Source: a virus (Duplodnaviria > Caudoviricetes). From it: DNA of 64,000 bases. Positions 3 through 62,437 of the stretch are shown one piece after another. Every line of letters begins with the position of its first letter. Positions within the stretch are counted from its first letter, which is position 1. The notes beneath the pieces are model-generated. The model was given only the letters and a program-made list of their open reading frames with translations. It searched no databases and was not told where the DNA came from. The stretch covers positions 1,060 to 65,059 of the IMG/VR virus record IMGVR_UViG_2880949579_000002; one strand, 5' to 3'. A program made the position numbers and the translations under genes.

Positions 3-3000
3 AAAGAAAGTAACTCAATTGTTACAACAAACACACAAGAAATAAAAGAAGACTCTCCAGACGAAAAAAGAAAGAGTGAGAGTAAGAGTAATTCATTAGA
101 GATAAAAAATAGTGAAGATCTTACAAAGGGGTCTATTATAAACTCCTTTGAAACCGTCAAGGAATTGCCTAAGACATACTTTTATGAAAATAATGATATT
201 GAAATTGCTATAGAGCTAAAACAAAGAACACTGCAAGAAGAAGGTCAATTAATAGTTAAGGAGGTTGATTCAGAAAAAGATGATAAGCAATTAGAATTAC
301 AAAAAAGAATCACGAATATGATTACTGAAAAGCTTAATGAAAAGCAAAAGTTAAATAAAGCAAAAATTTATGACATTTACTTTATTAATAAAGACGGAGA
401 TAGAATTCATGATCTTGAAATTCTAAATATACGCTATGTCTTTAAAAAACCTGTTTTATTAGATGAGAAAAATGAACTCTCAATATTTTCACTGTTCAAC
501 AACGAGTTAATTGATTCTAAAAATGTAGAAATCAAAAGAAATGATAGAAATGAAATTGTAGAATTAAGTTTTAATGTTGATAAAATACAACAACTTATCT
601 TGATCAATACGGTAGAAAAAAACTTAAACCTTATAGAAGACTCTCAAAAGACTAATAAAGAAGAACAAGAAGATACGAAAATAGAAAACAAAGAAACTTT
701 AGATGAATTTATTCAGCTTGAAAAGAGTTTATCAGGTAATAAGAAAATTACTATTGAGGGGTTGAGAAAAGACTTTTCAGAATTAGAAGGTGAAATACAG
801 CTTGAGGTAAAAGAACTTAATCCAAACAATGGGAAAGATAAAGAGCAAATTGAAATTAACGAGACAGAGATGGAAAAATTTATTCCTGAAAAAAGTGATT
901 CCATTAAGATCAATTGGCATCATTATGATATAAGCATCTTGTTAGATGGGGAGGAAATTGAACCTGTTAATAAGTTAAGGGTGTCCTTCTCAGGTTTTGA
1001 TACTACTGATCTTGATGATGCTACAAAGGAAGTAAAGGTCCTTCATCTGAATGAATTAACAAATGAGGTAGAAGATAAGGAAATTGAAATTGGGGAAAAC
1101 GGAGTTGTAGAAGCTGAATTTGATAGCTTCTCTCCTGTGACAGTTGTTGAAGTAATAGCAGATCATCCCTCTACTCTTAAGGCAACAGACTTTGTTAATG
1201 ATGTTAAGCACTATATGGAATATGCTCCCGGTTCTCTTGGAAAAGCAGTAATAGACTCTTCTCAAATACTGAATCCAGGTCGTACTTCCGATGCCTTTGG
1301 TAATATAGTTCTTGAACATGGCCAAGTTATAACAAAGAAAACAGCAACACCTGTTAAGGGAAAGGTTAATACTTGGGATATTACTGTTCGTGTAGAAGGT
1401 AGGGACAACATATCTGATACTACAGATGTTGTTCTAGTTCTTGATAATTCATATAGTATGTATGAAAAGAAAAACGAACTAGCTGATGGACGAACTCGTT
1501 TTCAAGCAGTACAAGAGGCTGCTAAGAAATTTGTTGATATAGCATTGAATGAAAATCCTAACTTAAGGATTGCTATAGTAGTTTATAATGGGGAGGTAAC
1601 GATAAATTCTGGGAATATTAATCAACCATTTTCACAAGACAAACAAGCACTATATTCAGAAATTGATGCGATTAAAGAACCACCTTCATTAGACCCAGAG
1701 AAGAAAGGGGGAACTTTTACTCAAGCAGCTATTAAACAGGCTGGTGAAATTTTAAAAGGTTCTTCAGCAGATAATAAGCACATGGTGCTTATGGCTGATG
1801 GTTTTCCGACTTTTAGTTACGACTTAGATTCTTCATCTTGGGATGAGAAAATAGAACAAACAGAATTATTTTACAAGCCAGGTGCTCCTTTTAATATAAA
1901 GGATCTTTATGAAAAGACTAAATACTACAGACTACCTGCAGATGAAAGTCAGATTCAATTTAATTACGATAATAGGGTAGGTTTGGGAGCTGAAGAAAGA
2001 TCGTCAGTAGCATATAAGACTCTGAAAATTAATAAGGATATAGAAGATGTTTATAGGTATATCTATGGAGAATATATAACAGGTACTAAAGATCCGAATA
2101 ATATAGACCTAACTGTACAAGCTCATCGTTATCATGTGGACGGTGAGGACTTTGCAAGAGAATACAGATATGCACATCAAAAATCAACTGTTTTAGAAGC
2201 TAAAAGATTAAGAGAAGACCCAAACATAGGTTTGGATACTTTGTATTCTGTAGGTGTTGGCTTTGAAACCTATACTGGACAAGCATTGGAAATTGCTGTT
2301 AGAACGCTAAGCAGAATTGCTGATTCTGGAAAGTTTTATGATGTTAGAAATGCGGAGCGATTGACAGCTACCTTTGAAGAAATAGCAAAAACTATTAGTA
2401 TCAAAAGTGCTATGCGTGACTTCAAAATCGTTGACATCATGGGTAAAGGCTTTACGGTAACAGATGAGTCAAAAATAAAAGTAAGTGAAGGGAAAACAAG
2501 TTTTGACCGAAATTCAGAAACAATAAATTGGGATATAGAAACTGTAACTAAGTGTGTGGCTACAAAAAGTGACGTAAGATATGCAGAATTAACTTATAGA
2601 ATTGAAATCAACGATGATATTCTAACTCTACCAGGTTCAAAGACTAATCAACACGAGAAGTTTATTACCAATGCCGTAACTGATTTGACTTATACAGATA
2701 ATCTTAAGGATGAGAAGAAGACCTTATCAATTGATTCTCCAAAGGTAGATCCAGTTCTTTTGAAGGTTAAAAAGGTCTTATTAGATAGTAATGGAAAATT
2801 ATTAAATGAAGATATAACATTTACAATAAATGTTACTAATGATTTGAAGACCTACGACGAAAGGCATGAATTAAGTCCAAAAGAAGACTATAAATGGCGT
2901 ACTACTTTGAGAGATGAGGGAACCTACTTGGTTGACGAAATAGCTGTATCTGGAACTCCAGAAAAAAACTATATTACGACTATTAAGATTGATGGAGAAG

Positions 3001-3206
3001 AAACTAGTGAGTTCTTGGTAAATCATGACGGTGATATTCCGAGAGGCGATGTTAATATTGAGGTTACAAATCAGGAATTAGGAGGTTATGAACTGCCAAC
3101 AACCGGTGGATTAGGAACTATACTCTTTAGATTGATAGGAGTCTTTGTATTGACTTTCGCTTTAGTAATTCCTTATAGAATGAGACGAGTTAAATGCGAA
3201 AGGTAA
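3..3206 (+). CDS. Pilus tip/ancillary adhesin with von Willebrand A domain and LPXTG anchor (5' partial)
   Basis: Frame is open from base 3, so the start is upstream; MIDAS-like DVVLVLDNSYS, GGTFTQ, MADG; C-terminal YELPTTGG followed by a hydrophobic stretch and basic tail. Confidence 0.85.
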   Translation, partial: KESNSIVTTNTQEIKEDSPDEKRKSESKSNSLEIKNSEDLTKGSIINSFETVKELPKTYFYENNDIEIAIELKQRTLQEEGQLIVKEVDSEKDDKQLELQKRITNMITEKLNEKQKLNKAKIYDIYFINKDGDRIHDLEILNIRYVFKKPVLLDEKNELSIFSLFNNELIDSKNVEIKRNDRNEIVELSFNVDKIQQLILINTVEKNLNLIEDSQKTNKEEQEDTKIENKETLDEFIQLEKSLSGNKKITIEGLRKDFSELEGEIQLEVKELNPNNGKDKEQIEINETEMEKFIPEKSDSIKINWHHYDISILLDGEEIEPVNKLRVSFSGFDTTDLDDATKEVKVLHLNELTNEVEDKEIEIGENGVVEAEFDSFSPVTVVEVIADHPSTLKATDFVNDVKHYMEYAPGSLGKAVIDSSQILNPGRTSDAFGNIVLEHGQVITKKTATPVKGKVNTWDITVRVEGRDNISDTTDVVLVLDNSYSMYEKKNELADGRTRFQAVQEAAKKFVDIALNENPNLRIAIVVYNGEVTINSGNINQPFSQDKQALYSEIDAIKEPPSLDPEKKGGTFTQAAIKQAGEILKGSSADNKHMVLMADGFPTFSYDLDSSSWDEKIEQTELFYKPGAPFNIKDLYEKTKYYRLPADESQIQFNYDNRVGLGAEERSSVAYKTLKINKDIEDVYRYIYGEYITGTKDPNNIDLTVQAHRYHVDGEDFAREYRYAHQKSTVLEAKRLREDPNIGLDTLYSVGVGFETYTGQALEIAVRTLSRIADSGKFYDVRNAERLTATFEEIAKTISIKSAMRDFKIVDIMGKGFTVTDESKIKVSEGKTSFDRNSETINWDIETVTKCVATKSDVRYAELTYRIEINDDILTLPGSKTNQHEKFITNAVTDLTYTDNLKDEKKTLSIDSPKVDPVLLKVKKVLLDSNGKLLNEDITFTINVTNDLKTYDERHELSPKEDYKWRTTLRDEGTYLVDEIAVSGTPEKNYITTIKIDGEETSEFLVNHDGDIPRGDVNIEVTNQELGGYELPTTGGLGTILFRLIGVFVLTFALVIPYRMRRVKCER

Positions 3207-3796
3207 ATAAGTTTTTCTTATTTGGTACGCTTTGCATTTTGTTTGGACTCTTACTTTTTTCTAAAAACTTATGGGAAGATTATCAGGTTGGAAAAGAAAC
3301 TGAGTTAATCAAAGAAAGGCTTGAAGAAAAGAAGGTCATAGAAATTGAAAAACCAATTGATGATAGACCTGATTATGTTAAAAACCCGTATATGGAAATG
3401 CCAAAGGTTACAATTGACGGCAATGACTATATAGGATATGTAATTATACCGAGCTTAGAGCTGGAACTTCCGATTCTAAGCTCTTGGTCATATCCAAAGC
3501 TTAAGATTGCACCTGCAAGATATGAAGGTTCTGTATACTTAAACAATATGATCCTGTTAGCTCATAACTATACAGTCCATTTTGGCAAGCTTTATCGATT
3601 AAATATTGGAGATGTTATTCAATTTAAAGATATGAATGACAATCTTTTCGATTTTACTGTAGAAAAGAAAGAAGAGTTAGATGAAATACAAGTTGAAGAG
3701 ATGGTTTCTGGGGATTGGGACTTAACATTATTCACTTGCACTCTAGGTGGTGAAGCAAGAACAACTATACGATGTAAAAGAATAGAAAATAGGTGA
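3194..3796 (+). CDS. Sortase
   Basis: N-terminal TM helix, LAHNY catalytic His, LTLFTC catalytic Cys, downstream Arg; overlaps the LPXTG gene. Confidence 0.9.
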   Translation: MRKVNKFFLFGTLCILFGLLLFSKNLWEDYQVGKETELIKERLEEKKVIEIEKPIDDRPDYVKNPYMEMPKVTIDGNDYIGYVIIPSLELELPILSSWSYPKLKIAPARYEGSVYLNNMILLAHNYTVHFGKLYRLNIGDVIQFKDMNDNLFDFTVEKKEELDEIQVEEMVSGDWDLTLFTCTLGGEARTTIRCKRIENR

Positions 3797-3871
3797 TATT
3801 TTGTCAATATAGCATTGTAGAAATAAAATTTAAGAGAGGTTATATTATGAAAAAAGAAAATTTTTGTAGAT

Positions 3872-4705
3872 ATGACATCAAATAAAAAAGAAAAAATAAA
3901 TAAAAAAGAAAAACTTGTAGGGAAAAGATTTGGAAAACTAAAAGTACTATCTGTTTATAAAAAAGGCAAGTACAAAAAATGTAAATGTATTTGTGATTGT
4001 GGAAACACTACTGATGTATACTATAGCAATCTTGTTTCAGGAAGAACAATAAGTTGCGGTTGTCGAGGGGGAGAGATTGCTAATAGGTATAAAAACATAG
4101 TAGGGGAAATATATCATGATCTTATAGTTGAAGAGAAGACTGAAAAACGTGAAGATGGCTTAATAGTTTGGAAATGTAGGTGTCTTAAATGTGGAAAATA
4201 TATTGAAGTCACTAAAAAACAGCTAGATAGAGGATATGTCAAAGACTGTGGAAACCATAAATACGAAGACTTATTGGGACAAAAAATTGGAGAGCTTACA
4301 ATTATCTCATTTGATAAAAATAGAGAAAAATATCTTTGCCAATGTTCTTGTGGTAAGTCTACATATGTATCCAGATCTAATTTAATCAGCAGTCATACCC
4401 TTAGTTGTGGTCATCTAAAGGACAACCGCAAATATAAGTATGTAGATGGAGCTTTACCATACCTATTAACAGGAAAAATTCCATCAAATAATACAAGTGG
4501 TGTAAAAGGTGTTAGTCAAACTAAAAGTGGGAAATGGGTTTCCTATATTACCTTAAGAAAAAAAAGATATACACTGGGAACATTTAAGAAAAAAGAAGAT
4601 GCTATTAGAGCTAGAAAAAAAGCGGAAATAGATTTCTTTTTACCAATAATAGAAAAAGATCAAATGAGGAAACAAAAAACGAAGCATCGTAAAGAGAGGG
4701 TATAA
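3872..4705 (+). CDS. AP2-domain DNA-binding protein with repeated Cys-rich modules
   Basis: Repeats of the type GKRFGKL..CxCDCG..SCG; C-terminal NNTSGVKGVS..KWVSYI..LGTF..EDAIRARKKAE typical of bacterial/phage AP2 domains. Confidence 0.75.
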   Translation: MTSNKKEKINKKEKLVGKRFGKLKVLSVYKKGKYKKCKCICDCGNTTDVYYSNLVSGRTISCGCRGGEIANRYKNIVGEIYHDLIVEEKTEKREDGLIVWKCRCLKCGKYIEVTKKQLDRGYVKDCGNHKYEDLLGQKIGELTIISFDKNREKYLCQCSCGKSTYVSRSNLISSHTLSCGHLKDNRKYKYVDGALPYLLTGKIPSNNTSGVKGVSQTKSGKWVSYITLRKKRYTLGTFKKKEDAIRARKKAEIDFFLPIIEKDQMRKQKTKHRKERV

Positions 4706-4849
4706 ACTCTGAATACTAGGTTACAGGTCTTTATTTTATAGGTGGAAATAAAGAAAGAGGTTTATTTGTCCATAACTCGTTTGAACAGAAATGGACTATT
4801 CTATTATAAATTGATTTTTATAGCATTATTTAGGAAAGGGAGGAAATAA

Positions 4850-6544
4850 TTGAGAACAAAAAAGATATTTAATTATTTAATAAAAGGTATATTGGCATTT
4901 GTTATTTTTGTGAGTATTTCTCCAGCAAAGTCAGCTCTTGCATGTAGCCATAATTGTAATAATTACAACAATTACAATTATAGTTATAAAGAAACAATCT
5001 GTGTGTATAAATCATGGTCGGGTCAACCTTTGAAATACGGTGAAAAGCGCCCAGATGTTTATTTTCAACTACTTAAAGATGGAAGGCCTGTGGGAGAGCC
5101 TAAGAAAGCAGTAAATAATATAGCAAGCTTTATAATACCAAGTTCTAGAAATATCTATAGATATACGATAAAAGAAGTTAATGTAGATGGAAGTGACTGG
5201 TCTGCTGAAGGCTATAGAGCAGGTTCAGTTCGTAGAGATTCATGTAATCCTTGTGTATTTTATATAACAAATACCAAAGAAAGAACAGAAACAATTTGCG
5301 TGTATAAAACATGGTCGGGTCAACCTTTGAAATACGGTGAAAAGCGCCCAGATGTTTATTTTCAACTACTTAAAGATGGAAGGCCTGTGGGAGAGCCTAA
5401 GAAAGCAGTAAATAATATAGCAAGCTTTATAATACCAAGTTCTAGAAATATCTATAGATATACGATAAAAGAAGTTAATGTAGATGGAAGTGACTGGTCT
5501 GCTGAAGGCTATAGAGCGGGAATAGTATATAGATCGTCATATAACCCTTGTGTATTTTGTGTAACGAACAATAAGGAGAAAATGCCAGCACCAGGTGAAG
5601 TTACTGTTGATAAGATCTGGACTGGTGTCGACTTAGAATTAGGACAAAATTATCCCGATGTATATTTCCAATTACTTAAGGATGGTCATGCAGTTGGTTC
5701 ACCTGTTTTATATGAAGGGCATACAGTAACTTTTAAGATTGACAACAAGGATGAAATCAGCAAATACGTAGTAAAAGAAGTTAATGCAGATGGAAGCGAC
5801 TGGTCTGCTGAAGGTTATGTGCCTGGAACAATTGAAGGCAGTGATGGAGTATTTACTGTAGAAAATAGAAAACTTGGGCCAAAACCTGCAAGTGCAAGTA
5901 TTGTTCTAAGAAAAACAATGTTAGGAAGACCAATTAAAGATGGGGAATTTTCTTTCCAATTAATAAATGATCAAGGTGTGGTCATTGAAACGATTACTAA
6001 TCTTGGTAATGATATTTGTTTTTCGGAAATAGAATATACGAAAGCAGGAACTTACAGATATACAGTAGTAGAGCAAGAAGGAGATAATAAAAATATTATC
6101 TATGATGCAAAAGTTATTGAAGTTATAGTAGAAGTCAAAGATGTAGAAGGCCAGCTAGTTGCTGAAGTAAGCTATAGTCCTGGTAATGAATTTAATAATC
6201 AATTAAAAGAAAAGCACGTAAAAGTTATCAAAATAGATGAGAATTATGATTATTTAGTTGGTGCTGCTCTTCAAATGACTTCAGATAATGGCTATAACGA
6301 GGTATGGGTAACCAATGGGAAGGGGAGAACTTTTGAGTTGACAGAAGGAAGATATACTATCACTGAGTTGTCAACTCCGAATGAGGAATATGAGTTGGCT
6401 TCACCAGTTGTGTTTGATATTGTTTATAACGAAGCTAAAGAAGAACTAGAATTTGTTATTGTTGATGAAGGCGAAGGCAATATCATTAATGAGGTTGAAA
6501 ATATCATTTATATGTTAGACAAATATAAAATTATAATTAATTAA
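4850..6544 (+). CDS. Secreted Cna-B/pilin-like repeat protein
   Basis: Signal peptide; three K.W..PDVYFQLLKDG..Y.xKE repeats; FctA-like GEFSFQL..YTKAGTYRYTVVE domain; SpaA-like final domain; no LPXTG. Confidence 0.75.
   Translation: MRTKKIFNYLIKGILAFVIFVSISPAKSALACSHNCNNYNNYNYSYKETICVYKSWSGQPLKYGEKRPDVYFQLLKDGRPVGEPKKAVNNIASFIIPSSRNIYRYTIKEVNVDGSDWSAEGYRAGSVRRDSCNPCVFYITNTKERTETICVYKTWSGQPLKYGEKRPDVYFQLLKDGRPVGEPKKAVNNIASFIIPSSRNIYRYTIKEVNVDGSDWSAEGYRAGIVYRSSYNPCVFCVTNNKEKMPAPGEVTVDKIWTGVDLELGQNYPDVYFQLLKDGHAVGSPVLYEGHTVTFKIDNKDEISKYVVKEVNADGSDWSAEGYVPGTIEGSDGVFTVENRKLGPKPASASIVLRKTMLGRPIKDGEFSFQLINDQGVVIETITNLGNDICFSEIEYTKAGTYRYTVVEQEGDNKNIIYDAKVIEVIVEVKDVEGQLVAEVSYSPGNEFNNQLKEKHVKVIKIDENYDYLVGAALQMTSDNGYNEVWVTNGKGRTFELTEGRYTITELSTPNEEYELASPVVFDIVYNEAKEELEFVIVDEGEGNIINEVENIIYMLDKYKIIIN
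5013..5517 (+). repeat. Intragenic direct repeat, 208 bp identical core with 297 bp period (5013-5220 and 5310-5517)
   Basis: Read directly; encodes a duplicated 99-aa domain. Confidence 0.9.
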
Positions 6545-7900: not shown

Positions 7901-8317
7901 ATGACAAAGAAAGATTATTTTATTTTTATTGATAAAGAAAAGGTAATGGTTAGTAAGGAAGTTTATCTGGCTTATTGGAAGCAGACGAATAGGGAAAAAT
8001 ATTTAGAACGACTTGATCGTAAAAATAGATTGCTCTATATTTCTCAATTTGATCAAGATGGTAACTTTCAGGATATAATAGAAGATAAAAGTGTAGATGT
8101 AGAAAAATTAGTTGAAACAAAAGAGGCAATAGTGAACTTGCGAAAAGCTATTTCTAAACTCAGTGATGAAGAAAGAGAGATTATTAATGCTTTGTATTTT
8201 AGGGAAGAGACTATACGAGATGTCGCACAGAATATAGGGACGCATAAGACATCTATTATAAGAAAAAGAGATAGGATTCTAGAAAAGTTAAAAATGATTT
8301 TAGAAAAAAATAAATAA
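7901..8317 (+). CDS. Sigma-70 region 4 (Tn916 Orf7-like) transcriptional regulator
   Basis: LRKAISKLSDEEREIINALYF..TIRDVAQ HTH; V.KEVY.AY N-terminus typical of ICE sigma-like proteins. Confidence 0.85.
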   Translation: MTKKDYFIFIDKEKVMVSKEVYLAYWKQTNREKYLERLDRKNRLLYISQFDQDGNFQDIIEDKSVDVEKLVETKEAIVNLRKAISKLSDEEREIINALYFREETIRDVAQNIGTHKTSIIRKRDRILEKLKMILEKNK

Positions 8318-8429: not shown

Positions 8430-8710
8430 ACCTTAACAATTGAATAGACCAAGACGAGACATTAATCATTTTTGGAGCGTAATAACCTATCCGCCAAGAT
8501 CTTTCTGCTGAATAATTCGGTAAAACAAGTACTGCTAAGCTAAAAACAAGGGAAGAAGAAAGGGAGCGATAAGTAAGAGTTTGAATATAGGGAGGGATAC
8601 CCTATTCGCTATGAAGAAAATGAGGATAATGATACTTCTAAGGTTGAAGCCGGCTCATCCTGAATAGAGGCGGAGGTGAGATTCCTATGTTGCTAATCCA
8701 AGGCACTTGT
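8430..8710 (+). ncRNA. Candidate structured RNA between the sigma-like gene and the recombinase operon
   Basis: No sizeable ORF; long-range TCCGCC(8490)/GGCGGA(8669) pairing, ATAGGG/CCCTAT hairpin, AGG-TGAGATT-CCT T-loop-like hairpin. Confidence 0.4.
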
Positions 8711-18833: not shown

Positions 18834-20390
18834 TTATGGGGCATGAAGTTTCCTCCGGCTCGTGAGACAACCTCACGGAGGAACAAACAAAGGAGGAAAT
18901 TTCATGCTTAATCAAATTATTAATGAAGTGCAACAAGATCTTGCAACAATTTTGGATGATGCCCAAATGGCTATGTTATCTAAAGTACTAAAAAAACGTC
19001 TAACAGAAGTGGTTGGTGATAAACAATTAGAAAAAGAGGATAAACAGAATAATCTTCTTCCGTTATTTATTTCAGCCAAACGTGTGGAAGGGTGTTCAAG
19101 CAAAACTTTACGTTATTATGAATCAACGATTCGAAATTTACTGGAGGATATTAACAAATCGGAATGTCATATAACAACGGAAGATTTACGGGATTACCTT
19201 GATTCATATCAGCAACGAGGTAATGTTAGTAAAGTTACGTTGGATAATGTAAGGAGAATTTTTTCTACCTTCTTTGCTTGGCTAGAGGATGAGGATTACA
19301 TTGTAAAGAGTCCGGTTAGAAGGATTCGAAAAGTTAAGACTGGTAAAACAGTGAAAGAAACGTATTCGGATGAGTCAATGGAGCTGATGCGTGATCACTG
19401 TGACAATATGCGTGATCTTTCTATGATTGACCTTCTAGCTTCAACAGGCATTCGGGTAGGAGAATTAGTCAAGCTTAATATCAGGGATGTGGACTTTGAA
19501 AATAGAGAGTGTGTTGTGATAGGAAAAGGTAATAGGCAACGAAAAGTATACTTTGATGCTAGAACTAAAATACATCTTCAGAGATATCTATCAGAGCGTG
19601 AAGATAATAATGAAGCACTATTTGTATCATTATTAAAACCTTATGATCGATTGCAGATTAGCGGAGTTGAGATTCGTTTAAGAAAAATAGGACGAGAACT
19701 AAACTTTTCTAAGGTGCACCCACATAAGTTTCGCAGAACGCTGGCAACACTGGCAATAGACAAAGGAATGCCGATTGAGCAGGTTCAACAGCTTCTTGGC
19801 CATCAAAGTATAGATACTACTCTTCAGTATGCAATGGTGAATCAGGAAAATGTTAAAAACTCCTTTAAAAAGTTCATTGGTTAATTTCAAATCTCAATTT
19901 ATCGAGATGTTTGGCAATCCAAATAAGATAACCAACTCATCTCGTTTAGAAGAAGCATTTGAAATTAGAAATGATTTAAGGAAACCTTTGAATGATGCTG
20001 TTCGCTCAAAAATGCATACAGGAGAGTTGTATCCATACTACGGTGCGAATGGCCAGGTGGATAGTATAAATGAGTATCTAATGGACTGCACAGCACTTTG
20101 TTTAGCAGAAGATTGCGGAGCATACGGTGCAGGAGAGTCAACCTCTTATATCATTAAGGGAAAATCTTGGGTAAACAACCATGCACATGTATTAATACCG
20201 CTTGACTGTTGTGATATAGAATTTGCTAATACATATTTCAAAATACTAGATATGACAAAATTTGTGACTGGAACGACACGGCTGAAACTGACTCAAGGTA
20301 AGATGAAGGAAATACCGTTTTTGCTGCCACCATTAAGTGATCAGAAGAAATTTGCAGCCTTTGTCCGACAGAGCGATAAATCAAAATTTG
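18267..20390 (+). repeat. 499-bp direct duplication of TRD2b (18267-18765 = 19892-20390) flanking the recombinase
   Basis: Identical translation and nucleotide match at offset 1625. Confidence 0.9.
18904..19884 (+). CDS. Tyrosine recombinase (XerC/D-like) embedded in the hsdS array
   Basis: TGIR, GKG, HKFRR, LLGH, TTLQY catalytic residues; N-terminal SAM-like domain. Confidence 0.93.
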   Translation: MLNQIINEVQQDLATILDDAQMAMLSKVLKKRLTEVVGDKQLEKEDKQNNLLPLFISAKRVEGCSSKTLRYYESTIRNLLEDINKSECHITTEDLRDYLDSYQQRGNVSKVTLDNVRRIFSTFFAWLEDEDYIVKSPVRRIRKVKTGKTVKETYSDESMELMRDHCDNMRDLSMIDLLASTGIRVGELVKLNIRDVDFENRECVVIGKGNRQRKVYFDARTKIHLQRYLSEREDNNEALFVSLLKPYDRLQISGVEIRLRKIGRELNFSKVHPHKFRRTLATLAIDKGMPIEQVQQLLGHQSIDTTLQYAMVNQENVKNSFKKFIG

Positions 20391-20476
20391 TAAGTGATAC
20401 AGAGGTACGAGATTTTAGACTCTTGAGCAACTTGATTCGCAATTATAACAATATGAATGTCAAAGATGGAAATTAA
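19886..20476 (+). pseudogene. hsdS: Silent hsdS half-gene (TRD2 cassette without TRD1 or credible start)
   Basis: Begins at R1 immediately after the integrase stop; duplicate of TRD2b with a different tail. Confidence 0.8.
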
Positions 20477-20500
20477 ACTTAATGATAGGAGGGAATATTT

Positions 20501-23410
20501 ATGTTTAACGAAGACAATACAATTGAAAAAATGGTGATCTCAACACTAACCAAAAACGGGTGGAATTTTATCTCAGCTGATGATTTACCACGGGACTTTT
20601 CGGATGTGATGGTGGAACCGATGGTTAAAGAAGCGCTAATTCGTTTGAATCCTGAAATAGCGGAAGAACCATCTCGTGCTGATGAAGTCATTTATAAATT
20701 ACGTGCAATTATACTTTCAGTGCAGCATCATAACCTAATAACTCAAAACGAACTTTTTCAAAGAATGATTTTTGAAGAAAATTCATATCCTTTTGGCAAA
20801 AATGGTCGAATGATACCGATCCGTTTTTTTGGCACAATGAAAAAAGAAGATTTAGTGCTTAATGAATATGTCGTTACTAATCAATGGATTTATCCTCAGG
20901 CCGAAGGTGGAAAGAGACTTGATATTGTTTTGCTGGTTAATGGTTTCCCAATTTCAATCGGAGAATTAAAGACCCCGGTGCGCAATGCTATAACCTGGTT
21001 AGACGCTGCGAGTGATATTTCATCGTATGAAAAGAGTATTCCTCAGATGTTTGTAACTAATGTATTTAATTTTGCTACTGAGGGTAGATGCTATCGCTAT
21101 GGTTCGGTTGGCATGCCAGTTAATATGTGGGGCCCATGGCATACTCCTGACCATAAGTCAGAGGGTAGCCTCGCTGATGTTAAAGTTAGCATAGCTGATA
21201 TGATTACTCCTGAGAAGGTTATGGATATTTTTCAGTTTTTCACTCTCTTTGCTACAGATAAGAAACATGTTAAATACAAAATAATTTGCCGTTACCAGCA
21301 GTATGAAGGTGCTAACCTTATTGTACAACGTGTTATTGCGGGCTATCCAAAGCAAGGTCTTATCTGGCACTTTCAGGGTTCTGGTAAATCGTTGCTAATG
21401 GTATTTGCAGCACAAAAAATTCGCATGATCCCCGAACTTAAGAATCCTACTGTAGTAATAGTTGATGATCGACTTGATCTTGAAACTCAGATAACTGCAA
21501 CATTTAATGCTTCGGATATTCCAAATCTAGTATCACTTGCAACTAAGGAAGAGGTTGAAAACTTTTTTAAGCAAGATATTCGTAAAATTGCAATAACGAC
21601 CATTTTCCGATTTGGTGATGTCGAAGATGTTCTTAATCATAGAGATAACGTAATCATCATGGTTGATGAAGCACATAGAACTCAAGAAGGTGACCTCGGT
21701 GAAAGGATGCGTGCAGCACTTCCAAATGCTTTCTTCTTTGGACTTACCGGCACTCCAATTAATCGTATTGATAAGAATACTTTCCGTACATTTGGTGCAA
21801 CGGAAGATAAGAGTGGATATTTGAGTCGATATACTTTCTCGGATTCCATCAGAGACAATGCAACTCTACCCTTGAACTTTGAGCCAGTTCCAGTTGAGCT
21901 TCATGTTGATAAGGATAAAATAGATACAGAATTTGATGCTTTAACTGAGACGCTCTCAGATGCAGATCGAGCTGAGCTTTCAAAACGTGTAAACATGAAA
22001 GCCATCATGTATGATCCAAAACGTATACGAAAGGTTTGCGAACACATTGTAAAACATTATAAAGAAAAAATAGAGCCTAACGGGTATAAAGGACAGATTG
22101 TTGTATACGACCGTGAATGCTGTCTTAAGTACAAGGAAGAGCTAGATAAGCTACTCCCTCCTGAAGCAACAACGATCGTAATGGATACCAATAACGATAA
22201 GGAAGATCGATATAGAAAATTTCGTCGCAGTCGTGATGAAGAAGCAAGAGTTCTTGATCAGTTCCGTGATAAGAGTAACCCTCTTAAGTTAGTTATTGTT
22301 ACATCAAAGCTATTAACGGGTTTTGACGCTCCAATTCTTCAAGCAATGTATTTAGATAAGCCAATGAAGGACCATAACCTTCTGCAAGCCATCTGCCGTA
22401 CCAACCGTACTTTTGATGAAGGTAAAACCCATGGATTAATTGTAGACTACATTGGTATTTTTGATAATGTAGCTAAGGCGTTGGACTTTGATGAAGCTAG
22501 CATGAAAAAAGTTATCACAAATATTGAAGAAGTCAAGAAGCAGGTTCCTGCACTTCTCAGAAAATGCCTAAGTTACTTTATGGGCGTTGACCGTACCGTA
22601 GTAGGTTGGGAAGGTTTACTTGCAGCTCAGGAGTGTATTCCAACAAATAAAGATAAAGATGCATTTGCTGCAGATTATCATGTTCTAAATAGAGCATGGG
22701 ATGCTCTGTCCCCTGATCCATTTCTTGATAAGTACAAGTTTGACTATGTATGGCTAACAAAAGTCTACGAGTCAGTGAAACCCACGGATAATCGCGGTGC
22801 TCTCGTTTGGGCTGCTCTTGGCGCCAAAACAATGGAATTAGTTCACTCTAATATCGAAGTTGGCAGGGTTCATGATGATATGGATATTTTAACGCTTGAT
22901 GCGGATCTAATTGACGAATTTATTCGTAAGCAGAAAGATGTTAAAAAGACAACTATGAAGGTAGAAATAGACTTAGTTGCCAAAATTCGCGAACATTCTA
23001 ACGATCCAAAGTTTATTAAGCTGGGAGAGAAGCTCGAAGAGCTTCGTGAACGTCACGAACAAGGGTTAATTAATAGTATTGAGTTCTTGAAGCTCCTACT
23101 TGAACTTGCAAAAGAAGCTGCTCAAGCAGAAAAGGAAGTTGTCCCGGAAGAAGAAATTGATCGTGGGAAAGCAGCACTCACAGAACTCTTTAAAGGTGCT
23201 AAGAACGACAAAACACCCATCATTGTTGAACGCATTGTTGCTGATATTGATGACATTGTAAAGATTGTACGATTCGATGGATGGCAAAGAACAACTACTG
23301 GAAAAAATGAAGTGAAAAAGGCACTTCGTAGTGTTATCTGGATTAAATACAAGATTAAAGACAAAGAAGTTTTCGATAAAGCTTATAGCTACATCGAGCA
23401 ATATTATTAG
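20501..23410 (+). CDS. hsdR: Type I restriction subunit R
   Basis: RLDIVLLVNG..ELK nuclease motif, WHFQGSGKS, DEAHR, LTGTP, TGFDAP, QAICRTNR. Confidence 0.95.
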   Translation: MFNEDNTIEKMVISTLTKNGWNFISADDLPRDFSDVMVEPMVKEALIRLNPEIAEEPSRADEVIYKLRAIILSVQHHNLITQNELFQRMIFEENSYPFGKNGRMIPIRFFGTMKKEDLVLNEYVVTNQWIYPQAEGGKRLDIVLLVNGFPISIGELKTPVRNAITWLDAASDISSYEKSIPQMFVTNVFNFATEGRCYRYGSVGMPVNMWGPWHTPDHKSEGSLADVKVSIADMITPEKVMDIFQFFTLFATDKKHVKYKIICRYQQYEGANLIVQRVIAGYPKQGLIWHFQGSGKSLLMVFAAQKIRMIPELKNPTVVIVDDRLDLETQITATFNASDIPNLVSLATKEEVENFFKQDIRKIAITTIFRFGDVEDVLNHRDNVIIMVDEAHRTQEGDLGERMRAALPNAFFFGLTGTPINRIDKNTFRTFGATEDKSGYLSRYTFSDSIRDNATLPLNFEPVPVELHVDKDKIDTEFDALTETLSDADRAELSKRVNMKAIMYDPKRIRKVCEHIVKHYKEKIEPNGYKGQIVVYDRECCLKYKEELDKLLPPEATTIVMDTNNDKEDRYRKFRRSRDEEARVLDQFRDKSNPLKLVIVTSKLLTGFDAPILQAMYLDKPMKDHNLLQAICRTNRTFDEGKTHGLIVDYIGIFDNVAKALDFDEASMKKVITNIEEVKKQVPALLRKCLSYFMGVDRTVVGWEGLLAAQECIPTNKDKDAFAADYHVLNRAWDALSPDPFLDKYKFDYVWLTKVYESVKPTDNRGALVWAALGAKTMELVHSNIEVGRVHDDMDILTLDADLIDEFIRKQKDVKKTTMKVEIDLVAKIREHSNDPKFIKLGEKLEELRERHEQGLINSIEFLKLLLELAKEAAQAEKEVVPEEEIDRGKAALTELFKGAKNDKTPIIVERIVADIDDIVKIVRFDGWQRTTTGKNEVKKALRSVIWIKYKIKDKEVFDKAYSYIEQYY

Positions 23411-23424
23411 TAGGAGGTCTGCCT

Positions 23425-25338
23425 ATGAAACAATATGCATCGTTTGAAAAGTATCTTGAAGACAAATATTATAATGATATTCACCGCGCTATCACCGGCC
23501 TCATATTTAAAAGAGGCCGGAATAACGGGTTTTATTCTTATACAGTTTTAGATCCTTCTTACTTTCAGGTAGAGGATATACATATAAAAACTGTCTCTTT
23601 CCACTCTACAGATGGAAGCAGGATTATTTTCAATGCAGCAGTTGAGGCAGATGTTATCCTAAAAGGAATGGGAAAGAGAGATTATGATGCTGATATAAAA
23701 AACCCTTGGTACACGGTCTCTTTTACTGGTTATTTAAGTGATGGTCTTAATATGGTTACCATTACGGATGTTGATGACTATTTCGCCGATAAGTTTGATA
23801 AGAATACAACATTATCAAAATATTTGATTCCTTACCTTTATTCAGAGGACTTAGAACAGGAAGCGGAAAAATTCCTTTACAAATACTGTAGACAAGCGCT
23901 AAATGAACCTATGCCTATTCCCCTCGATGAACTCATGTTTAATATGGGACTAGTGCTTTATGAGGCCCCGCTCCCAGATAATATATTTGGCAAAACTTAT
24001 TTTGCAGAATCAACAGTTGATATATTCAACGAGGAATATGAAGTAGTAAAACAGACCGTTGAGCCAGGAACAATCCTTTTAAATCCGAACATTTTCTTCA
24101 TGCGGAATATAGGATCTCGTAATAATACAGTTGTACATGAATGTGTGCATTGGGACCGTCATGATAAGTTTTTTGAAATGCAGAAGTTGTTAAATAGTGA
24201 TCTGACTTCTTTAACATGTGAGATTACTGAGCAAAGAGGGCTTAAGAATAATGGGATTGAAGGTGCGCTTCAGTGGATGGAATGGCAAGCTAATGCTTTG
24301 ACTCCTCGCATTCTACTACCTGCAAACACGACAAGACAAAAACTAAAAGAAATATTGCTACGTCTACATATTGAAAATTCAGAGAGATCTGATTCAGATA
24401 TTATGGAAGAGGCAATCGAAGAGTTGGCAGATTTTTTTGCAGTTTCAAAGTTTGCAGCAAAACTCCGCGCCATCGAACTTGGCTTTTCGCAGGCACAAGG
24501 GGTTTGGAATTATCTAAACGGCACCTATTTACCTAGTTTTTCATTTAAGGCAACTGCTCTCAATAAGGATGAAAGTTATATCATCGATATAAGAAATGCC
24601 TGTTATGAGGCAAGTTTTGATGTCAGCTTTAAAGCTAACCTTGAGAAAGGCGACTTTATTTATGTTGACTATATGTACTGTATCAATGATGAAAAATACG
24701 TAGAAAAATCTGCAGATGGGAAATGCACCCTAACATCTTATGCTAGACAGCATGTCGATGAATGTTGTATTAAATTTAAGCAAAAATTTAAAATAACAAA
24801 AACACAAGGCGATGCCTATTATACCCAATGTTCCCTTTGCAGAGATATAGATGCATCTTCTTATTGTGAATGTACTTACATTGAAGATGAAGATAATCAA
24901 GACGTAGTACAGCGTGCAATAGAATTGAAAAAACTAAAAGAAGAAGGAGAACGCATTACAGGAATATTACGATCACTACCGATGTCTTTTTCAGGGACTC
25001 TGGATGCCCATATGAAGCGTCTTAAAAAAGAAGATGGTACAAAGATGACTAATCTTGAGTTAGCGCTTAGAACAGGATTAAGTGATCGATATATTCAAGA
25101 CCTTCGCAAAGAAGAAAAAAATGTAAGTTATGAAACTGTCTGTGCCATTTGTATTGGGCTTCACCTACATCCCAAATTCAGTAACGATCTCATTAAGAAA
25201 TCACGCAATGATTATCCATTAACAGAAGAAGGTTACTTTGGTCAATTTCTCATCGAACATCACTATATGGAAACACTAGATTTATGTAATGAAAAGTTAA
25301 GAGAAATGGGCTATAAAACGTGGGGCAAGGATTTATAA
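23425..25338 (+). CDS. ImmA/IrrE-family metallopeptidase fused to a C-terminal XRE-like HTH (candidate prophage master regulator)
   Basis: RNNTVVHECVHW (HExxH), MEWQAN; TNLELALRTGLSDRYIQDL HTH. Confidence 0.75.
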   Translation: MKQYASFEKYLEDKYYNDIHRAITGLIFKRGRNNGFYSYTVLDPSYFQVEDIHIKTVSFHSTDGSRIIFNAAVEADVILKGMGKRDYDADIKNPWYTVSFTGYLSDGLNMVTITDVDDYFADKFDKNTTLSKYLIPYLYSEDLEQEAEKFLYKYCRQALNEPMPIPLDELMFNMGLVLYEAPLPDNIFGKTYFAESTVDIFNEEYEVVKQTVEPGTILLNPNIFFMRNIGSRNNTVVHECVHWDRHDKFFEMQKLLNSDLTSLTCEITEQRGLKNNGIEGALQWMEWQANALTPRILLPANTTRQKLKEILLRLHIENSERSDSDIMEEAIEELADFFAVSKFAAKLRAIELGFSQAQGVWNYLNGTYLPSFSFKATALNKDESYIIDIRNACYEASFDVSFKANLEKGDFIYVDYMYCINDEKYVEKSADGKCTLTSYARQHVDECCIKFKQKFKITKTQGDAYYTQCSLCRDIDASSYCECTYIEDEDNQDVVQRAIELKKLKEEGERITGILRSLPMSFSGTLDAHMKRLKKEDGTKMTNLELALRTGLSDRYIQDLRKEEKNVSYETVCAICIGLHLHPKFSNDLIKKSRNDYPLTEEGYFGQFLIEHHYMETLDLCNEKLREMGYKTWGKDL

Positions 25339-25359
25339 AATAGTAAAAAATAATTAGAC

Positions 25360-25470
25360 CAAAACCGGAACTCTTACTTCTGGTTTTGATTACGTAATTG
25401 CAAGGCTTTATGACCAGTAATGGTTGTAAAGCCTTTTTTTTACGCTCAAAAACCGGAACTCGCAGTTCTG
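25360..25470. promoter_or_regulatory. Two operator-like sites AAAACCGGAACTC-NN-A-N-TTCTG (25361, 25449)
   Basis: The first is a near-perfect palindrome CAAAACCGGAA-N7-TTCTGGTTTTG; the second lies just upstream of a TATGAT -10 at 25493. Confidence 0.65.
25402..25441 (+). terminator. Intrinsic terminator ending the R-M/regulator operon
   Basis: AAGGCTTTATGACCA-GTAA-TGGTTGTAAAGCCTT-TTTTT. Confidence 0.85.
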
Positions 25471-25547
25471 CGAAGGAAATCTTGTTTCAAATTATGATGT
25501 TAATAGAAGCTGAAAACTTCTAATAAACCAGTCTCAAAGTCCGAGAT

Positions 25548-25734
25548 GCGCATTAGGACGGCGGGATGCATAGAGAGTTCAGAACACAGTGATAGAGACT
25601 GTGTTTGGAATGAAGATGCACCCACCGTAATTTCGTGCGCTCTTTTTTAGGACAAACGAGGTTTGTGGTCATCTTACCCGCAGGCTCTTTTGCATTCCGC
25701 CACCCATTACTGGGACGGAAAGGAATGCAAAATG
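25548..25734 (+). promoter_or_regulatory. Structured 5' leader with alternative pairings upstream of the phage sigma-like gene
   Basis: Long hairpin 25548-25640 with U tract; RBS-occluding stem 25688-25698/25722-25732; competing helix 25560-25570/25691-25701. Confidence 0.65.
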
Positions 25735-26274
25735 AAAATACGAGTTTTATATGAAGACAACATCAAAAATGGTCACAAGAACTACACCACGATTGAAATT
25801 CCAGATGGAGATTACAGCGTCATGCTGGATATCGACTATGAGCAACGTCTTGCAGAAGCAAAACCTGAAAAGAAGGAAGAAGTGAAACGCTGTGAGACTG
25901 TCCAGGAAATGTTCGACCTCATGAACAACAAGGAATACAACCATTGGCGTCGCTACCATAGGCATCTTGGTAATCCTAAGACACCTTATCGAAAAGATGA
26001 TGAAGTTGAAATAGATGTCATGGATACTTTCGCTGATAACTCTCAGGAGATTGAACGCAATCACCAAGATGAGTATGAGTCTGTCTGCTCATGGATACGC
26101 ACTGCTCTTGGTAAAAAGAAGGATTGGGCAGATATGTTCATTGCAGTACGCATTGACGGTATGTCGATTCGAGAATATGCCAGCTCCATCGGAGTTAATG
26201 AAAACAACATTACTCAGAAATTAAAGCGGGCCACAAAGAAATTAGAACAAGAATATAAAAACCGTCAGATTTGA
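25732..26274 (+). CDS. Phage sigma-70 region 4-like transcription factor
   Basis: C-terminal DGMSIREYASSIGVNENNITQKLKRA HTH; AAGGA RBS before ATG 25732. Confidence 0.75.
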   Translation: MKIRVLYEDNIKNGHKNYTTIEIPDGDYSVMLDIDYEQRLAEAKPEKKEEVKRCETVQEMFDLMNNKEYNHWRRYHRHLGNPKTPYRKDDEVEIDVMDTFADNSQEIERNHQDEYESVCSWIRTALGKKKDWADMFIAVRIDGMSIREYASSIGVNENNITQKLKRATKKLEQEYKNRQI

Positions 26275-26298
26275 CCTTCTCCCAAGGCTACTAGGTAG
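26265..26298 (+). promoter_or_regulatory. Bipartite motif copy 1 TCAGATT-N14-GGCTACTAGGTAG
   Basis: Repeated with identical spacing at 55840 and 60133. Confidence 0.75.
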
Positions 26299-26338
26299 GA
26301 GGTCAAGACCTCCAAAAAAACACAAGGAGGTAATTCGA

Positions 26339-27121
26339 ATGGAATTACAAGTTTACAAAAATGCAGAGTTTGGCTCTGTACGTACTACAACGATTGGCGG
26401 GCAACCATATTTTGTTGGCAAGGATGTAGCAAGCATTCTTGGTTATGCAAATACTCGCAAAGCTTTAATTGACCACATTGATGAAGAGGACAAGGATGAC
26501 GTAACGATTCGTGACGCCATCGGAAGAAATCAAACGATGACTGCTATCAACGAGTCTGGTCTGTACAGTCTCATCCTCTCAAGCAAGATGCCAAATGCTA
26601 AAAAGTTCAAACGCTGGGTCACCAATGAAGTCCTTCCTGCTATTCGCAAACACGGACTTTATGCAACAGATGATTTAATCGCAAATCCAGACCTTGCCAT
26701 TGCAGCTTTTACTGCACTGAAAGAGGAACGAGAAAAGAATAAGGAGCTGATGGCGGCCGTTGCGATTGGTCAGCAGCAGATTGCTGAGATGAAACCCAAG
26801 GCTACTTATTATGATGTGGTTCTTAAATGCAGGGATGCAGTAAACATTTCTGTGATTGCCAAAGATTACGGCTGGAGTGCCATGCGCATGAACGACTACC
26901 TTCATGAAAAAGGCATTCAGTTTAAGCAAGGTGATATTTGGCTTCTCTATCAAAAGTATGCTCCCAATGGATATACAAAAACCAACACTCACATTTATGA
27001 AGATAGCAAAGGTATAAAGCATACGAAAGTGCATACCAAGTGGACACAAAAAGGCAGACTCTTTATCTATGAACAGCTAAAGGCGGATGGTATTTATCCG
27101 CAGATTGAGATGGAGGTGTGA
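26339..27121 (+). CDS. BRO-N/KilAC (ANT) phage antirepressor
   Basis: FGSVR..PYFVGKDVA..INESGLYSLI..AKKFKRWVTNEVLP; KPKATYYD..WTQKGRLF. Confidence 0.9.
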   Translation: MELQVYKNAEFGSVRTTTIGGQPYFVGKDVASILGYANTRKALIDHIDEEDKDDVTIRDAIGRNQTMTAINESGLYSLILSSKMPNAKKFKRWVTNEVLPAIRKHGLYATDDLIANPDLAIAAFTALKEEREKNKELMAAVAIGQQQIAEMKPKATYYDVVLKCRDAVNISVIAKDYGWSAMRMNDYLHEKGIQFKQGDIWLLYQKYAPNGYTKTNTHIYEDSKGIKHTKVHTKWTQKGRLFIYEQLKADGIYPQIEMEV

Positions 27122-60453: not shown

Positions 60454-62019
60454 ATGATGAAAAAGATAACAAAAATAGATGAACTGACCCAGGGACAACT
60501 ACCTACTACGAAACTTAGGGTTGCCGCCTATGCTAGAGTCTCAACCGATAGTGATGAACAACTTGAAAGCCTTAAAGCACAGCGTGAACACTATGAGCGC
60601 TATATTAAGTCTAATCCTGAATGGGAGTTTGCTGGTCTTTATTATGACGAAGGGATCTCCGGCACCAAGATGGAGAAACGGACTGAACTGCTCCGCATGA
60701 TACGAGATTGTAAGCAAGGTCGGATAGATTTTATTATCACCAAATCAATCAGCCGCTTTGCTCGTAATACAGTAGATTGCCTAGAGTTAGTAAGAAAGCT
60801 GATTGATATCGGTGTTTACATTTATTTTGAAAAAGAGAATCTAAATACGGGTGATATGGAAAGTGAGCTGATGCTTTCTATCCTTTCTGGATTTGCTGCA
60901 GAAGAGTCTGCATCTATTTCACAAAACTCAACATGGTCCATTCAAAAGAGATTTCAAAACGGCAGTTATGTAGGTACTCCACCCTATGGATATACCAATA
61001 TAGATGGTGAAATGGTAATCGTCCCAGAAGAAGCAGAAATCATCAAACGTATTTTTGCAGAGTGCCTTTCAGGGAAAGGTGGAGGTACTATAGCAAGAGG
61101 TTTGAACAAAGACAAAATCCCTGCAAGACGAGGTAATCACTGGAGTGCAGGCACGGTGATAGACATGCTTCGAAACGAAAAATATATGGGTGATGTCCTA
61201 CTACAAAAGACTTACACAGATAGTAACTACAATCGCCATCCAAATACAGGCGAAAAAGACCAGTACTATTACAAGGACAATCATGAAGCGATTATTAGTA
61301 GAGAAGACTTTGCTAAGACACAAGATCTCATTGATGAAAGAGCCAAGATGAAGTGTAAGGGCATGAAAAAGAACGTTTATCTTAATCGATATGCTTTAAG
61401 TGGCAAGATTGTCTGTGGAGAGTGTGGTCGCAATTTTAGGAGAAAGACAAACTACTCAGCTGGTAGGAGTTACATTGCTTGGAGTTGCATCGGTCATATC
61501 GAAGACAAAGAGAGTTGCTCCATGTTGTTCTTGCGAGATGGGGAAATCAAAGCCACATTTACAACCATGATGAATAAGCTTGCTTTCAGTAACAAGCTAA
61601 TCCTAGAGCCACTTTTCAAATCAATTAGCCAAATCGATGAAGAAAGCGACCGTGAAAGAATGGATGCTATTGATAAGCGAATGGAGCAACTCATGGAAGA
61701 ACGCAACACCCTTATTACACTGATGGCCAAAGGTTTCCTTGAGCCAGCTCTTTTTAATCAGGAACGAAATGTTTTAGATAGTGAGATGAAAAATCTTTCA
61801 ACTGAAAAAACAAACCTTGTATCAAATTCCGCGAGTGGGATTTTGCGAGCAAACGAGATAAAGGACCTCATTGATTACGTGTCAGCAAATAATTTTAATG
61901 GTGACTACACGGAAGAATTATTTGAAGAATTTGTAGAGAACATCATTGTAAATTCCAGGGATGAGCTGACATTCAATTTGAAATGCGGTCTTTCCCTGAA
62001 AGAAAAGGTGGTGAGATAA
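60454..62019 (+). CDS. Large serine recombinase 1
   Basis: [25 protein letters not shown] Zn ribbon. Confidence 0.93.
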   Translation: MMKKITKIDELTQGQLPTTKLRVAAYARVSTDSDEQLESLKAQREHYERYIKSNPEWEFAGLYYDEGISGTKMEKRTELLRMIRDCKQGRIDFIITKSISRFARNTVDCLELVRKLIDIGVYIYFEKENLNTGDMESELMLSILSGFAAEESASISQNSTWSIQKRFQNGSYVGTPPYGYTNIDGEMVIVPEEAEIIKRIFAECLSGKGGGTIARGLNKDKIPARRGNHWSAGTVIDMLRNEKYMGDVLLQKTYTDSNYNRHPNTGEKDQYYYKDNHEAIISREDFAKTQDLIDERAKMKCKGMKKNVYLNRYALSGKIVCGECGRNFRRKTNYSAGRSYIAWSCIGHIEDKESCSMLFLRDGEIKATFTTMMNKLAFSNKLILEPLFKSISQIDEESDRERMDAIDKRMEQLMEERNTLITLMAKGFLEPALFNQERNVLDSEMKNLSTEKTNLVSNSASGILRANEIKDLIDYVSANNFNGDYTEELFEEFVENIIVNSRDELTFNLKCGLSLKEKVVR

Positions 62020-62436
62020 ATGGCATATATTCCATATGGATACAGAATTCAAGACGGAGTTGTTACTGTCGATGAAAAGGCAGCAGGTCAAGTAAAGGTA
62101 TTCTTTGAGAAATACATATCAGGACTATCCCTTACAGTGGCTGGCGAACAAGCAGGTATTGATAAGACACACTCTGTGATGGGACGCATTTTGAAAAACG
62201 TCAACTACCTTGGAAATGATACGTATCCAGCAATCATTGATAAAGAGATATTTGATAAAGCTGAAGAAGTTAGAGATAAGCGTGCAAAGGATTTAGGACG
62301 AGTGGTAGAGCTTGCCGCTTTCACCTCTCCCCCTCCCAAAGAACGATTTAAAATGAGAAAGGCAGATAATAAGATGCCAGTTGATCCTTTTGAACGAGCA
62401 GAATACTTATACAGTCTGATAGAAAGCGAGGAATAA
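62020..62436 (+). CDS. Short recombinase-domain protein without catalytic domain
   Basis: PYGY..IL.N..YLG...YPAII..E.F. Confidence 0.8.
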
Positions 62437-62437
62437 A

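Follow-up and report, generated by a model that had tools for sequence, protein, structure and literature searches.

A conserved prophage leader RNA with two mutually exclusive, covarying folds upstream of the first gene of an early operon

The locus lies in a window of 64,000 nt (the whole stretch of viral DNA that was analysed), where a non-coding gap (25339-25731) separates two open reading frames (ORFs) on the + strand. The ORF on its 5' side (23425-25338, +) codes for a 637-aa protein matching phrog_4031 (unknown function). An HExxH motif is visible in its translation, and a weak HTH_3 match is found around residues 540-580; the protein may combine a protease with a DNA-binding regulator in one chain. 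The ORF on the 3' side (25732-26274, +) codes for a 180-aa protein with a C-terminal helix-turn-helix resembling sigma-70 region 4, as indicated by Pfam and phrog matches. Its start codon, ATG at 25732, was settled by alignment of homologues. In the first-pass annotation this gene had been called sigma-like, which is correct insofar as there is a weak similarity to sigma-70 region 4: the match to Pfam PF08281 has 24.2 bits, just below the cutoff of 25.7 bits. A Pfam-based test for membership in the sigma-70 family gave no match to region 2 and the sub-cutoff match to region 4 alone. Among phrogs, the protein matches phrog_11138 (unknown function; 2.5e-33) and phrog_1740 (sigma factor; 4.9e-6).

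On the same strand, the 180-aa gene is followed by genes for a Bro-N/KilAC antirepressor, a DUF7768 protein, a VapE-type primase, and an SNF2 helicase, then by a DUF1492 regulator, HNH, and terminase, and still farther downstream by DUF2800, an Enc34-type ssDNA-binding protein, a family A polymerase, and serine recombinases. On the 5' side of the gap are cargo genes, with a type I restriction-modification system, and all upstream genes are co-directional. This gene order places the 3' part of the gap, referred to as the leader below, at the entry to the prophage early operon, and the 180-aa sigma-like gene is the first gene of this operon, with antirepressor, primase, and helicase behind it.

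The restriction-modification cargo (11168-23410) comprises five hsdS-like ORFs, two hsdM, and hsdR. One hsdM (12802-15219) carries a fused ADP-ribosylglycohydrolase domain, and the hsdS copies have a tyrosine recombinase (18862-19884) among them; this cargo looks like an invertible specificity system. At the left end of the window, 3-6544 (+) codes for a VWA-domain surface protein, a sortase, and an isopeptide-domain pilin-like protein, after which a small sigma-r4/HTH protein is encoded (7901-8317). These left-end genes are probably part of another mobile element, located left of the prophage. The right end of the prophage carries two further large serine recombinase genes in tandem (60454-64000, +), after the genes for DUF2800, the ssDNA-binding protein, and polymerase A.

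Homologous loci were collected from genome contigs with a protein query (58 loci) and from viral contigs with a protein-alignment query (80 loci). Matches to the leader were obtained with nhmmer at 127 places (122 of them full length, comprising 96 unique sequences), from which a set of 70 with <98.5% identity was retained. The MAFFT alignment of these 70 distinct leaders (A2) is fitted to neither of the two folds described below. Two covariance models, R1 for the OFF fold and R2 for the ON fold, each re-aligned 78-79 matches, and the resulting alignments contain 78 distinct leaders (A4, fitted to R1) and 77 distinct leaders (A5, fitted to R2). The 77-78 distinct leaders stem from prophages of many Firmicutes; hosts of this prophage family are Streptococcus, Erysipelothrix, Enterococcus, many Clostridia, and Negativicutes. 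When 150 other genomes were sampled evenly from the phylum, the OFF model matched in 3 of them (4/151 counting the genome from which the window originates). Two phage records, Streptococcus phage Javan630 and Erysipelothrix phage phi1605, also contain matches to the leader DNA, and in both the corresponding stretch is unannotated or labelled hypothetical.

At the loci examined, the leader and the sigma-like gene always occur together, while the genes 5' of the leader vary. The leader is more conserved than the protein encoded behind it and precedes at least three N-terminal types of sigma-region-4-like proteins (164-180 aa). No second copy was detected within the 64-kb window by the covariance model. 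A divergent second copy is present in the same genome ca. 22 kb past the window end (G000:C1:260672-260879, - strand, corresponding to L142:1501-1708, - strand; 49.8 bits with the OFF model), where it precedes a gene for a 179-aa Cys-rich sigma-region-4-like protein and a Bro-N antirepressor. Locus L043 carries tandem leaders (2218-2425 and 2792-3012), and the upstream one precedes a 22-codon ORF. The start of this ORF resembles the N-terminus of the L143-type protein.

The whole conserved leader RNA extends from 25531 to 25743 (+), beginning with the conserved block and ending 12 nt inside the coding region, in agreement with the covariance-model matches. It scores 230.3 bits with the OFF model (R1) and 235.3 bits with the ON model (R2); on the opposite strand of the window the best covariance-model match has only 14.1 bits. 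Conservation sets in sharply at 25531, and the sequence further 5' varies among homologues. Just 5' of the conserved block a small hairpin (P0, 25505-25521, +) was read by eye; homologues have a hairpin of other sequence at this position, also judged by eye and without a formal count. Several further features were seen on the 5' side. A 13-base direct repeat (ca. 25362-25374 and 25449-25461, +) lies between the 637-aa gene and the leader, and its motif is also found 5' of the leaders of loci L121 and L122 despite otherwise different upstream sequence. A separate hairpin, absent from the window, is located 60-100 nt 5' of the leader in L001, L005, L033, L044, L107, and others; it has a conserved 20-nt loop on a 9-bp stem in which both strands differ between loci, and occurs at many, but not all, related loci.

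Rfam 15 does not provide a family for the leader. A scan of the whole window at gathering thresholds gave a single match, none at the leader. This match is the pemK RNA motif (RF02913) at 8626-8690 (+; 55.6 bits vs. a threshold of 34.8), which is located 5' of a large serine recombinase gene (8941-10695). A permissive scan of 24800-26800 returned 6 matches, all with E >= 0.85 and with 12.7-20.2 bits against thresholds of 40-80. Rfam holds an isrK family; neither isrK nor c4 gave an Rfam match for the leader.

In the OFF fold, the leader forms three domains. The first is the long irregular hairpin P2 (25548-25640, +; G25548 to C25640), which is part of the predicted minimum free energy (MFE) structure. 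It was found exactly as described in the first-pass annotation and is directly followed by TCTTTTTT (25641-25648). This U-run (UCUUUUUU) is a possible intrinsic terminator tail. Within P2, segment A (GGCGGGAUGCA, 25560-25570) pairs with segment B (GAAGAUGCACCCACCG, 25612-25627) below an apical stem (25578-25609). A conserved, purine-rich, symmetric internal loop is formed by AGAGAG (25572-25577) facing 25612-25615 (GAAG). The second domain is the hairpin P3 (25660-25686), in which segment E (25665-25675; end of the 5' strand and loop) and segment F (25678-25686; 3' strand) form the pairing E:F. The third is the hairpin P4, the outer stem of which pairs segment C (25688-25701) with segment D (25722-25732). 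This is the perfect 11-bp stem that had been claimed, between TTTTGCATTCC (25688-25698) and GGAATGCAAAA (25722-25732), with 25732 being the A of the ATG; its pair probabilities in the ensemble are 0.46-1.0. The Shine-Dalgarno sequence (SD) GAAAGGA is at 25718-25724 and the start codon at 25732-25734, so that the 3' strand of the stem overlaps both.

The ON fold reuses the same segments, keeping the apical stem of P2. Segment A (GGCGGGATGCA, 25560-25570) pairs with the 3' part of segment C (TGCATTCCGCC, 25691-25701), forming 11 bp (10 Watson-Crick pairs and one G.U) as had been proposed. The suggested extension is also present: AGAGAG (25572-25577) pairs with CTCTTT (25685-25690), with T25571 bulged. 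Segment F is freed or becomes joined to this extension. Once A:C was enforced, RNAfold itself produced an additional helix, B:E, in which 25613-25618 and 25622-25625 contact the loop and stem of P3 (25665-25675). Of the two strands of the P2 internal loop, AGAGAG is complementary to the linker preceding C, and GAAG to the loop of P3. A smaller element behaves similarly: GUCC (25539-25542) has the OFF partner GGAC at 25650-25653 (P1) and the ON partner GGAC at 25556-25559 (P1'). P1 is 89.8-93.0% and P1' 95.4-96.4% paired in the alignments; the support for both is weak because they show little variation.

Shuffling controls speak against chance. For 25540-25745 the predicted MFE is -77.4 kcal/mol (z = -5.98), a value reached by 0/200 dinucleotide shuffles. 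Gapless helices of at least 11 bp with at most one G.U pair arose in 17/1000 shuffles of the 213-nt leader; the real leader has two, and these share one strand. A search for a trans-acting copy of the key segments found none: in the entire 64-kb window, segment A (with up to 1 mismatch) has a sole other match, which is segment C on the minus strand, and segment B (with up to 2 mismatches) has no second match.

A lack of conservation of the alternative helix had been named as a result that would refute the switch; both folds were compared across the alignments. On the unfitted alignment A2, 85.8% of the cells are paired for the OFF fold and 87.3% for the ON fold, with changes on both sides in 32/65 and 32/60 pairs, respectively. 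For either fold, 0/500 shuffles of A2 matched the observed number of paired cells or the covariation score, in a control that ignores the relatedness of the sequences. When the partners were slid by 1-3 columns, pairing dropped to 32-51%. Because model-fitted alignments favour their own model, each fold was tested on the alignment fitted to the other one. All counts are made over related sequences and overstate the number of independent events.

The A:C helix is 96.6% paired on A2 (5/11 pairs compensatory, 26 cells) and 93.8% paired on A4, which is fitted to the OFF model (6/11 pairs, 36 cells); the alternative helix is thus kept, with compensatory changes. The helices that extend A:C are 90.2-99.3% paired, and in their inner part 3/4 pairs have compensatory changes. 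B:E is 91.7-92.5% paired across the alignments, with compensatory changes in 5/6 pairs on A5 (91.7% paired) and in 2/6 on A2. On A5, which is fitted to the ON model, the OFF fold has 84.1% paired cells (39/65 pairs compensatory) and the ON fold 87.0% (39/59). For the OFF helices, A:B is 91.6% paired on A5 (90.3-92.2% across alignments), with changes on both sides in 2/13 (A2), 8/12 (A4), and 6/12 (A5) pairs. P3 is 96.3% paired on A5 with 5/9 compensatory pairs (96.3-98.2% and 5-6/9 across alignments), and C:D is 75.5% paired with 4/9 compensatory pairs (75.5-84.1% and 4-7/9 across alignments). The apical stem, common to both folds, has compensatory changes in 10-12/13 pairs. Inspection by eye indicates that divergent copies (L052, L085, L120, L142, L146) change segments A, B, C, D, and E in concert. 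In the most divergent group (L111, L112, L113, L118), A:C is reduced to about 6 bp (by eye) and the ON model scores below the OFF model, e.g., 25.9 vs. 40.9 bits for L112.

Judged from the alignments, compensatory evolution has maintained both helix sets, which use the same nucleotides. The central claim of the first-pass annotation, two mutually exclusive folds of which one sequesters the SD and the start codon, is borne out in this respect. Covariation cannot separate pairing in cis from pairing in trans. As to the strand, G.U pairs are frequent (54/70 and 46/70 at two A:C positions, 52/70 in P3), and thus the + strand RNA is the strand that folds; model matches on the reverse strand reach at most 26.1 bits, compared to up to 245.6 bits on the forward strand.

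The relative stability of the two folds was assessed by nearest-neighbour predictions, which lack tertiary terms. For the window sequence, the predicted energies are -85.3 kcal/mol for OFF and -72.7 kcal/mol for the forced ON fold. ON is thus predicted to be 12.2-12.6 kcal/mol less stable, which is near the OFF-stable end of the family, and in this sequence it may rarely form without help. Among 78 homologues, the predicted median difference (ON minus OFF) is +6.4 kcal/mol, and several members are within 2 kcal/mol; forced-fold energies are unreliable for the second copy of L043 and for L107-L109, where the C:D columns are misaligned. At full length, the predicted MFE structure is OFF in 66/78 homologues and ON in 3/78.

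Folding the window sequence length by length gives a different picture for incomplete transcripts. A:B is predicted from end position 25624 onwards and P3 from 25684, ON prevails for ends at 25702-25714, and OFF returns once D is present. For ends 1-13 nt past segment C, ON is the predicted MFE structure in 53/78 homologues and not in the other 25/78.

The U-run is a conserved feature, as 73/78 aligned rows have a run of at least 4 T within 12 nt past P2. A simple terminator scan made no call on the P2 hairpin, as an irregular hairpin of 93 nt falls outside its criteria for loop and stem. From its sequence, the U-run probably also terminates part of the transcripts, leaving a short RNA. We considered whether the ON helix might act as an antiterminator. 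This is ruled out by the order of synthesis, in which the 3' strand of the helix (25691-25701) follows the U-run by ca. 45 nt; length-by-length folding gave no competitor to the long hairpin before 25702, which is already past the U-run. The switch reading of the first-pass annotation thus holds in part, namely with respect to the two-fold RNA and its setting.

Upstream of the conserved block, a -10-like hexamer ending 22-42 nt 5' of it occurs in 15/33 upstream types; in five equally wide control windows the counts are 10, 6, 3, 2, and 1. This sequence pattern hints at a promoter; the candidate in the window itself has no convincing -35 element. An antisense RNA had also been suggested as a controlling factor, but no antisense promoter-like site was found over the leader; the sole minus-strand promoter-like site (25290-25262) is 5' of the leader and directed away from it. 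Four RNA-library runs, available as assembled contigs, contain fragments of relatives. The high-depth RNA contigs of X12 and X13 cover the 637-aa gene and end at 25319 and 25409, leaving the leader uncovered. Contigs can show neither starts, ends, and levels of transcripts nor their absence, and these were given no weight as evidence.

Based on sequence comparison and predicted energies, we consider it likely (with a probability of roughly 0.7) that 25531-25743 is a cis-regulatory, bistable leader RNA on the + strand which gates translation initiation of the first early gene. It would then represent a real, and apparently undescribed, riboregulator family. The gene order suggests that such a gate would act on prophage induction. 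In the OFF state, the 11-bp C:D stem of P4 would mask the first base of the start codon and some of the SD. In the ON state, A:C and B:E would dissolve all three OFF domains and leave the SD and the AUG single-stranded. During synthesis, P2 and P3 would be expected to fold first. With C out and D not yet made, ON would be the more stable fold, and it may nucleate on the purine-rich internal loop of P2, where each of the invading strands could gain a foothold through these pairings. After the synthesis of D, OFF would be the equilibrium fold.

The fraction of translatable message would then be set by a race between refolding and the synthesis of D, or by a factor which stabilises ON. The most economical such factor would be the 5' domain of the leader itself, if termination at the U-run frees it as a short RNA that pairs in trans via A:C and B:E. 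There are thus three candidates for setting the balance: the transcription race, the terminated 5' domain acting in trans, and a ligand or protein that stabilises ON. We rank the race and the trans-acting short RNA jointly above a ligand or protein, because they need no unseen partner and make use of the conserved U-run.

It is conceivable, though we would not expect it, that the leader is a new class of sensor RNA which decides on the exit from lysogeny of a temperate phage with broad host range. It would then be either a riboswitch for a universal cellular signal, with ON as the aptamer, or a self-targeting small/messenger RNA resembling IsrK from Salmonella. In the latter version, the origin in Firmicutes phages would apparently be independent, because there is no detectable homology to IsrK. 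The terminated 5' domain would then have to build up before read-through messages become translatable, and the leader would be a threshold filter against leaky early transcription.

A metabolite or ion riboswitch would have ON as the ligand-bound aptamer, with A:C closing a three-way junction that contains the apical stem and B:E, so that the ligand frees the SD. The layout fits a translational ON switch, in which the closing stem lends its 3' strand to the pairing with the SD, and an expression platform with mutually exclusive helices over the SD (C:D vs. A:C) is present. The predicted energies of the two folds are close in many members, and hosts from several Firmicutes classes would fit a universal ligand. 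That the leader is conserved more than its downstream protein also agrees with an aptamer, but the need to satisfy two folds at once can alone explain high conservation. Moreover, the downstream genes (regulators and replication proteins) suggest no ligand, and no riboswitch family of Rfam 15 matches. We thus regard a riboswitch as rather unlikely.

We give the same low weight to a switch controlled by a phage or host RNA-binding protein, which would tip the balance by binding to the purine-rich loop or another conserved single-stranded part; the downstream product might regulate its own synthesis in this way, or a lysogeny factor might exert the control. The conserved symmetric internal loop of P2 would be a plausible binding site, but the ON pairing already explains both of its strands. 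The strict association of leader and sigma-like gene would fit protein control, but three N-terminal protein types are found behind similar leaders, which argues against specific recognition by the product; in addition, the upstream genes are variable.

Still less probable is a single functional fold, with OFF as a constitutive insulator (terminator plus weak ribosome binding site, RBS) against read-through into the early operon, and with A:C and B:E being incidental. Insulation would be useful behind co-directional cargo genes, and OFF is the predicted full-length MFE structure in most homologues (see above). However, on alignments not fitted to them, A:C and B:E have stayed paired in several lineages although both strands changed, and the unbiased alignment A2 supports ON as well as OFF. 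If only A:B and C:D were selected, correlated changes in A and C would have no cause.

We attach hardly any weight to a DNA-level element (origin, packaging, or recombination site), for which the position at the boundary of variable cargo and conserved phage backbone might speak but whose frequent G.U pairs would be A.C mismatches on the other strand, with model scores on the reverse strand being about 1/10 of the forward ones, or to an erm-type leader-peptide attenuator, as an AUG is present in segment B in 69/77 distinct sequences but the small ORF starting there is not conserved. For this reason, a leader peptide encoded by segment B (in the window, M-H-P-P and a stop) was rejected: among the 77 distinct sequences, the ORF has 4 codons in 31, has 11-41 codons or is open in 38, and lacks an AUG in 8, and indels shift its frame.

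Returning to the bistable leader as a gate on translation, its family and its exchange of three helices for two appear to be undescribed. Full-text literature searches turned up no description of the element, although supplementary tables, which are outside of such a search, might list an unnamed candidate; the genome paper of phi1207.3 does not mention sigma, repressor, promoter, or terminator. If the leader gates translation of the early gene, it contributes to whether these phages remain dormant or become active. According to listings and abstracts of papers, this family includes phages with relatives that carry drug-resistance cargo. Furthermore, the leader would be a compact natural switch which refolds whole domains, with covariation behind both states and with a predicted built-in toehold, in that each strand of one internal loop can pair with one of the two invading strands.

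The kind of device, a leader which sequesters the SD and has an anti-sequestering alternative, is already well known. In the adenine (add) riboswitch, the 3' strand of the closing helix competes with the SD-sequestering helix, and aptamer strands re-pair in the OFF state. The leader shares this competition between closing helix and SD helix, but has no match to a riboswitch family and undergoes a much larger rearrangement, involving three domains.

Phages P1 and P7 have the immunity RNA c4, which is derived from the leader of the operon that it controls. For the CI immunity RNA of P4, the mechanism summarised in a passage of PMC4825925 likewise involves an RNA from the leader of the controlled operon. 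Both RNAs resemble the terminated 5' domain proposed here in being complementary to later parts of their own leader and in controlling antirepressor or replication genes. They differ in that their pairings shut off expression (by RBS block or premature termination) and need processing, whereas the pairing in the leader is predicted to open the RBS.

Kinetic control of translation has been described for the leader of the MS2 maturation gene, where covariation supports the inhibitory fold (excerpts of PMC4615214). According to these excerpts for MS2, and by prediction for the leader, a conserved structure sequesters the SD at equilibrium, so that translation would be possible only before the final fold is reached. 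In MS2, however, the SD is sequestered by long-distance pairing to an upstream region, whereas here sequestration is local and the long-distance pairing would open the SD. The leader is also part of a DNA phage mRNA made by host RNA polymerase, and its transient ON window is a prediction.

A further parallel is IsrK from the Salmonella prophage Gifsy-1, for which two alternative structures of about -85.7 and -84.2 kcal/mol are given in the relevant passages of PMC4825925. As described there, the read-through mRNA is translationally silent, with the RBS of the first ORF in a hairpin; the terminated short form activates this mRNA in trans, the switching opens the RBS, and an antirepressor gene is located downstream (PMC4825925). 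To the extent covered by these passages, both systems consist of a prophage leader with a terminator (putative in the leader described here), two alternative structures with closed or open RBS, and an antirepressor gene downstream. They differ in that the inactive fold of IsrK contains the long-range helix, whereas in the leader described here the long-range helix belongs to the predicted active fold. Furthermore, the short RNA of IsrK acts in trans, while for the leader a short form and its action in trans are proposed, and the host phyla differ.
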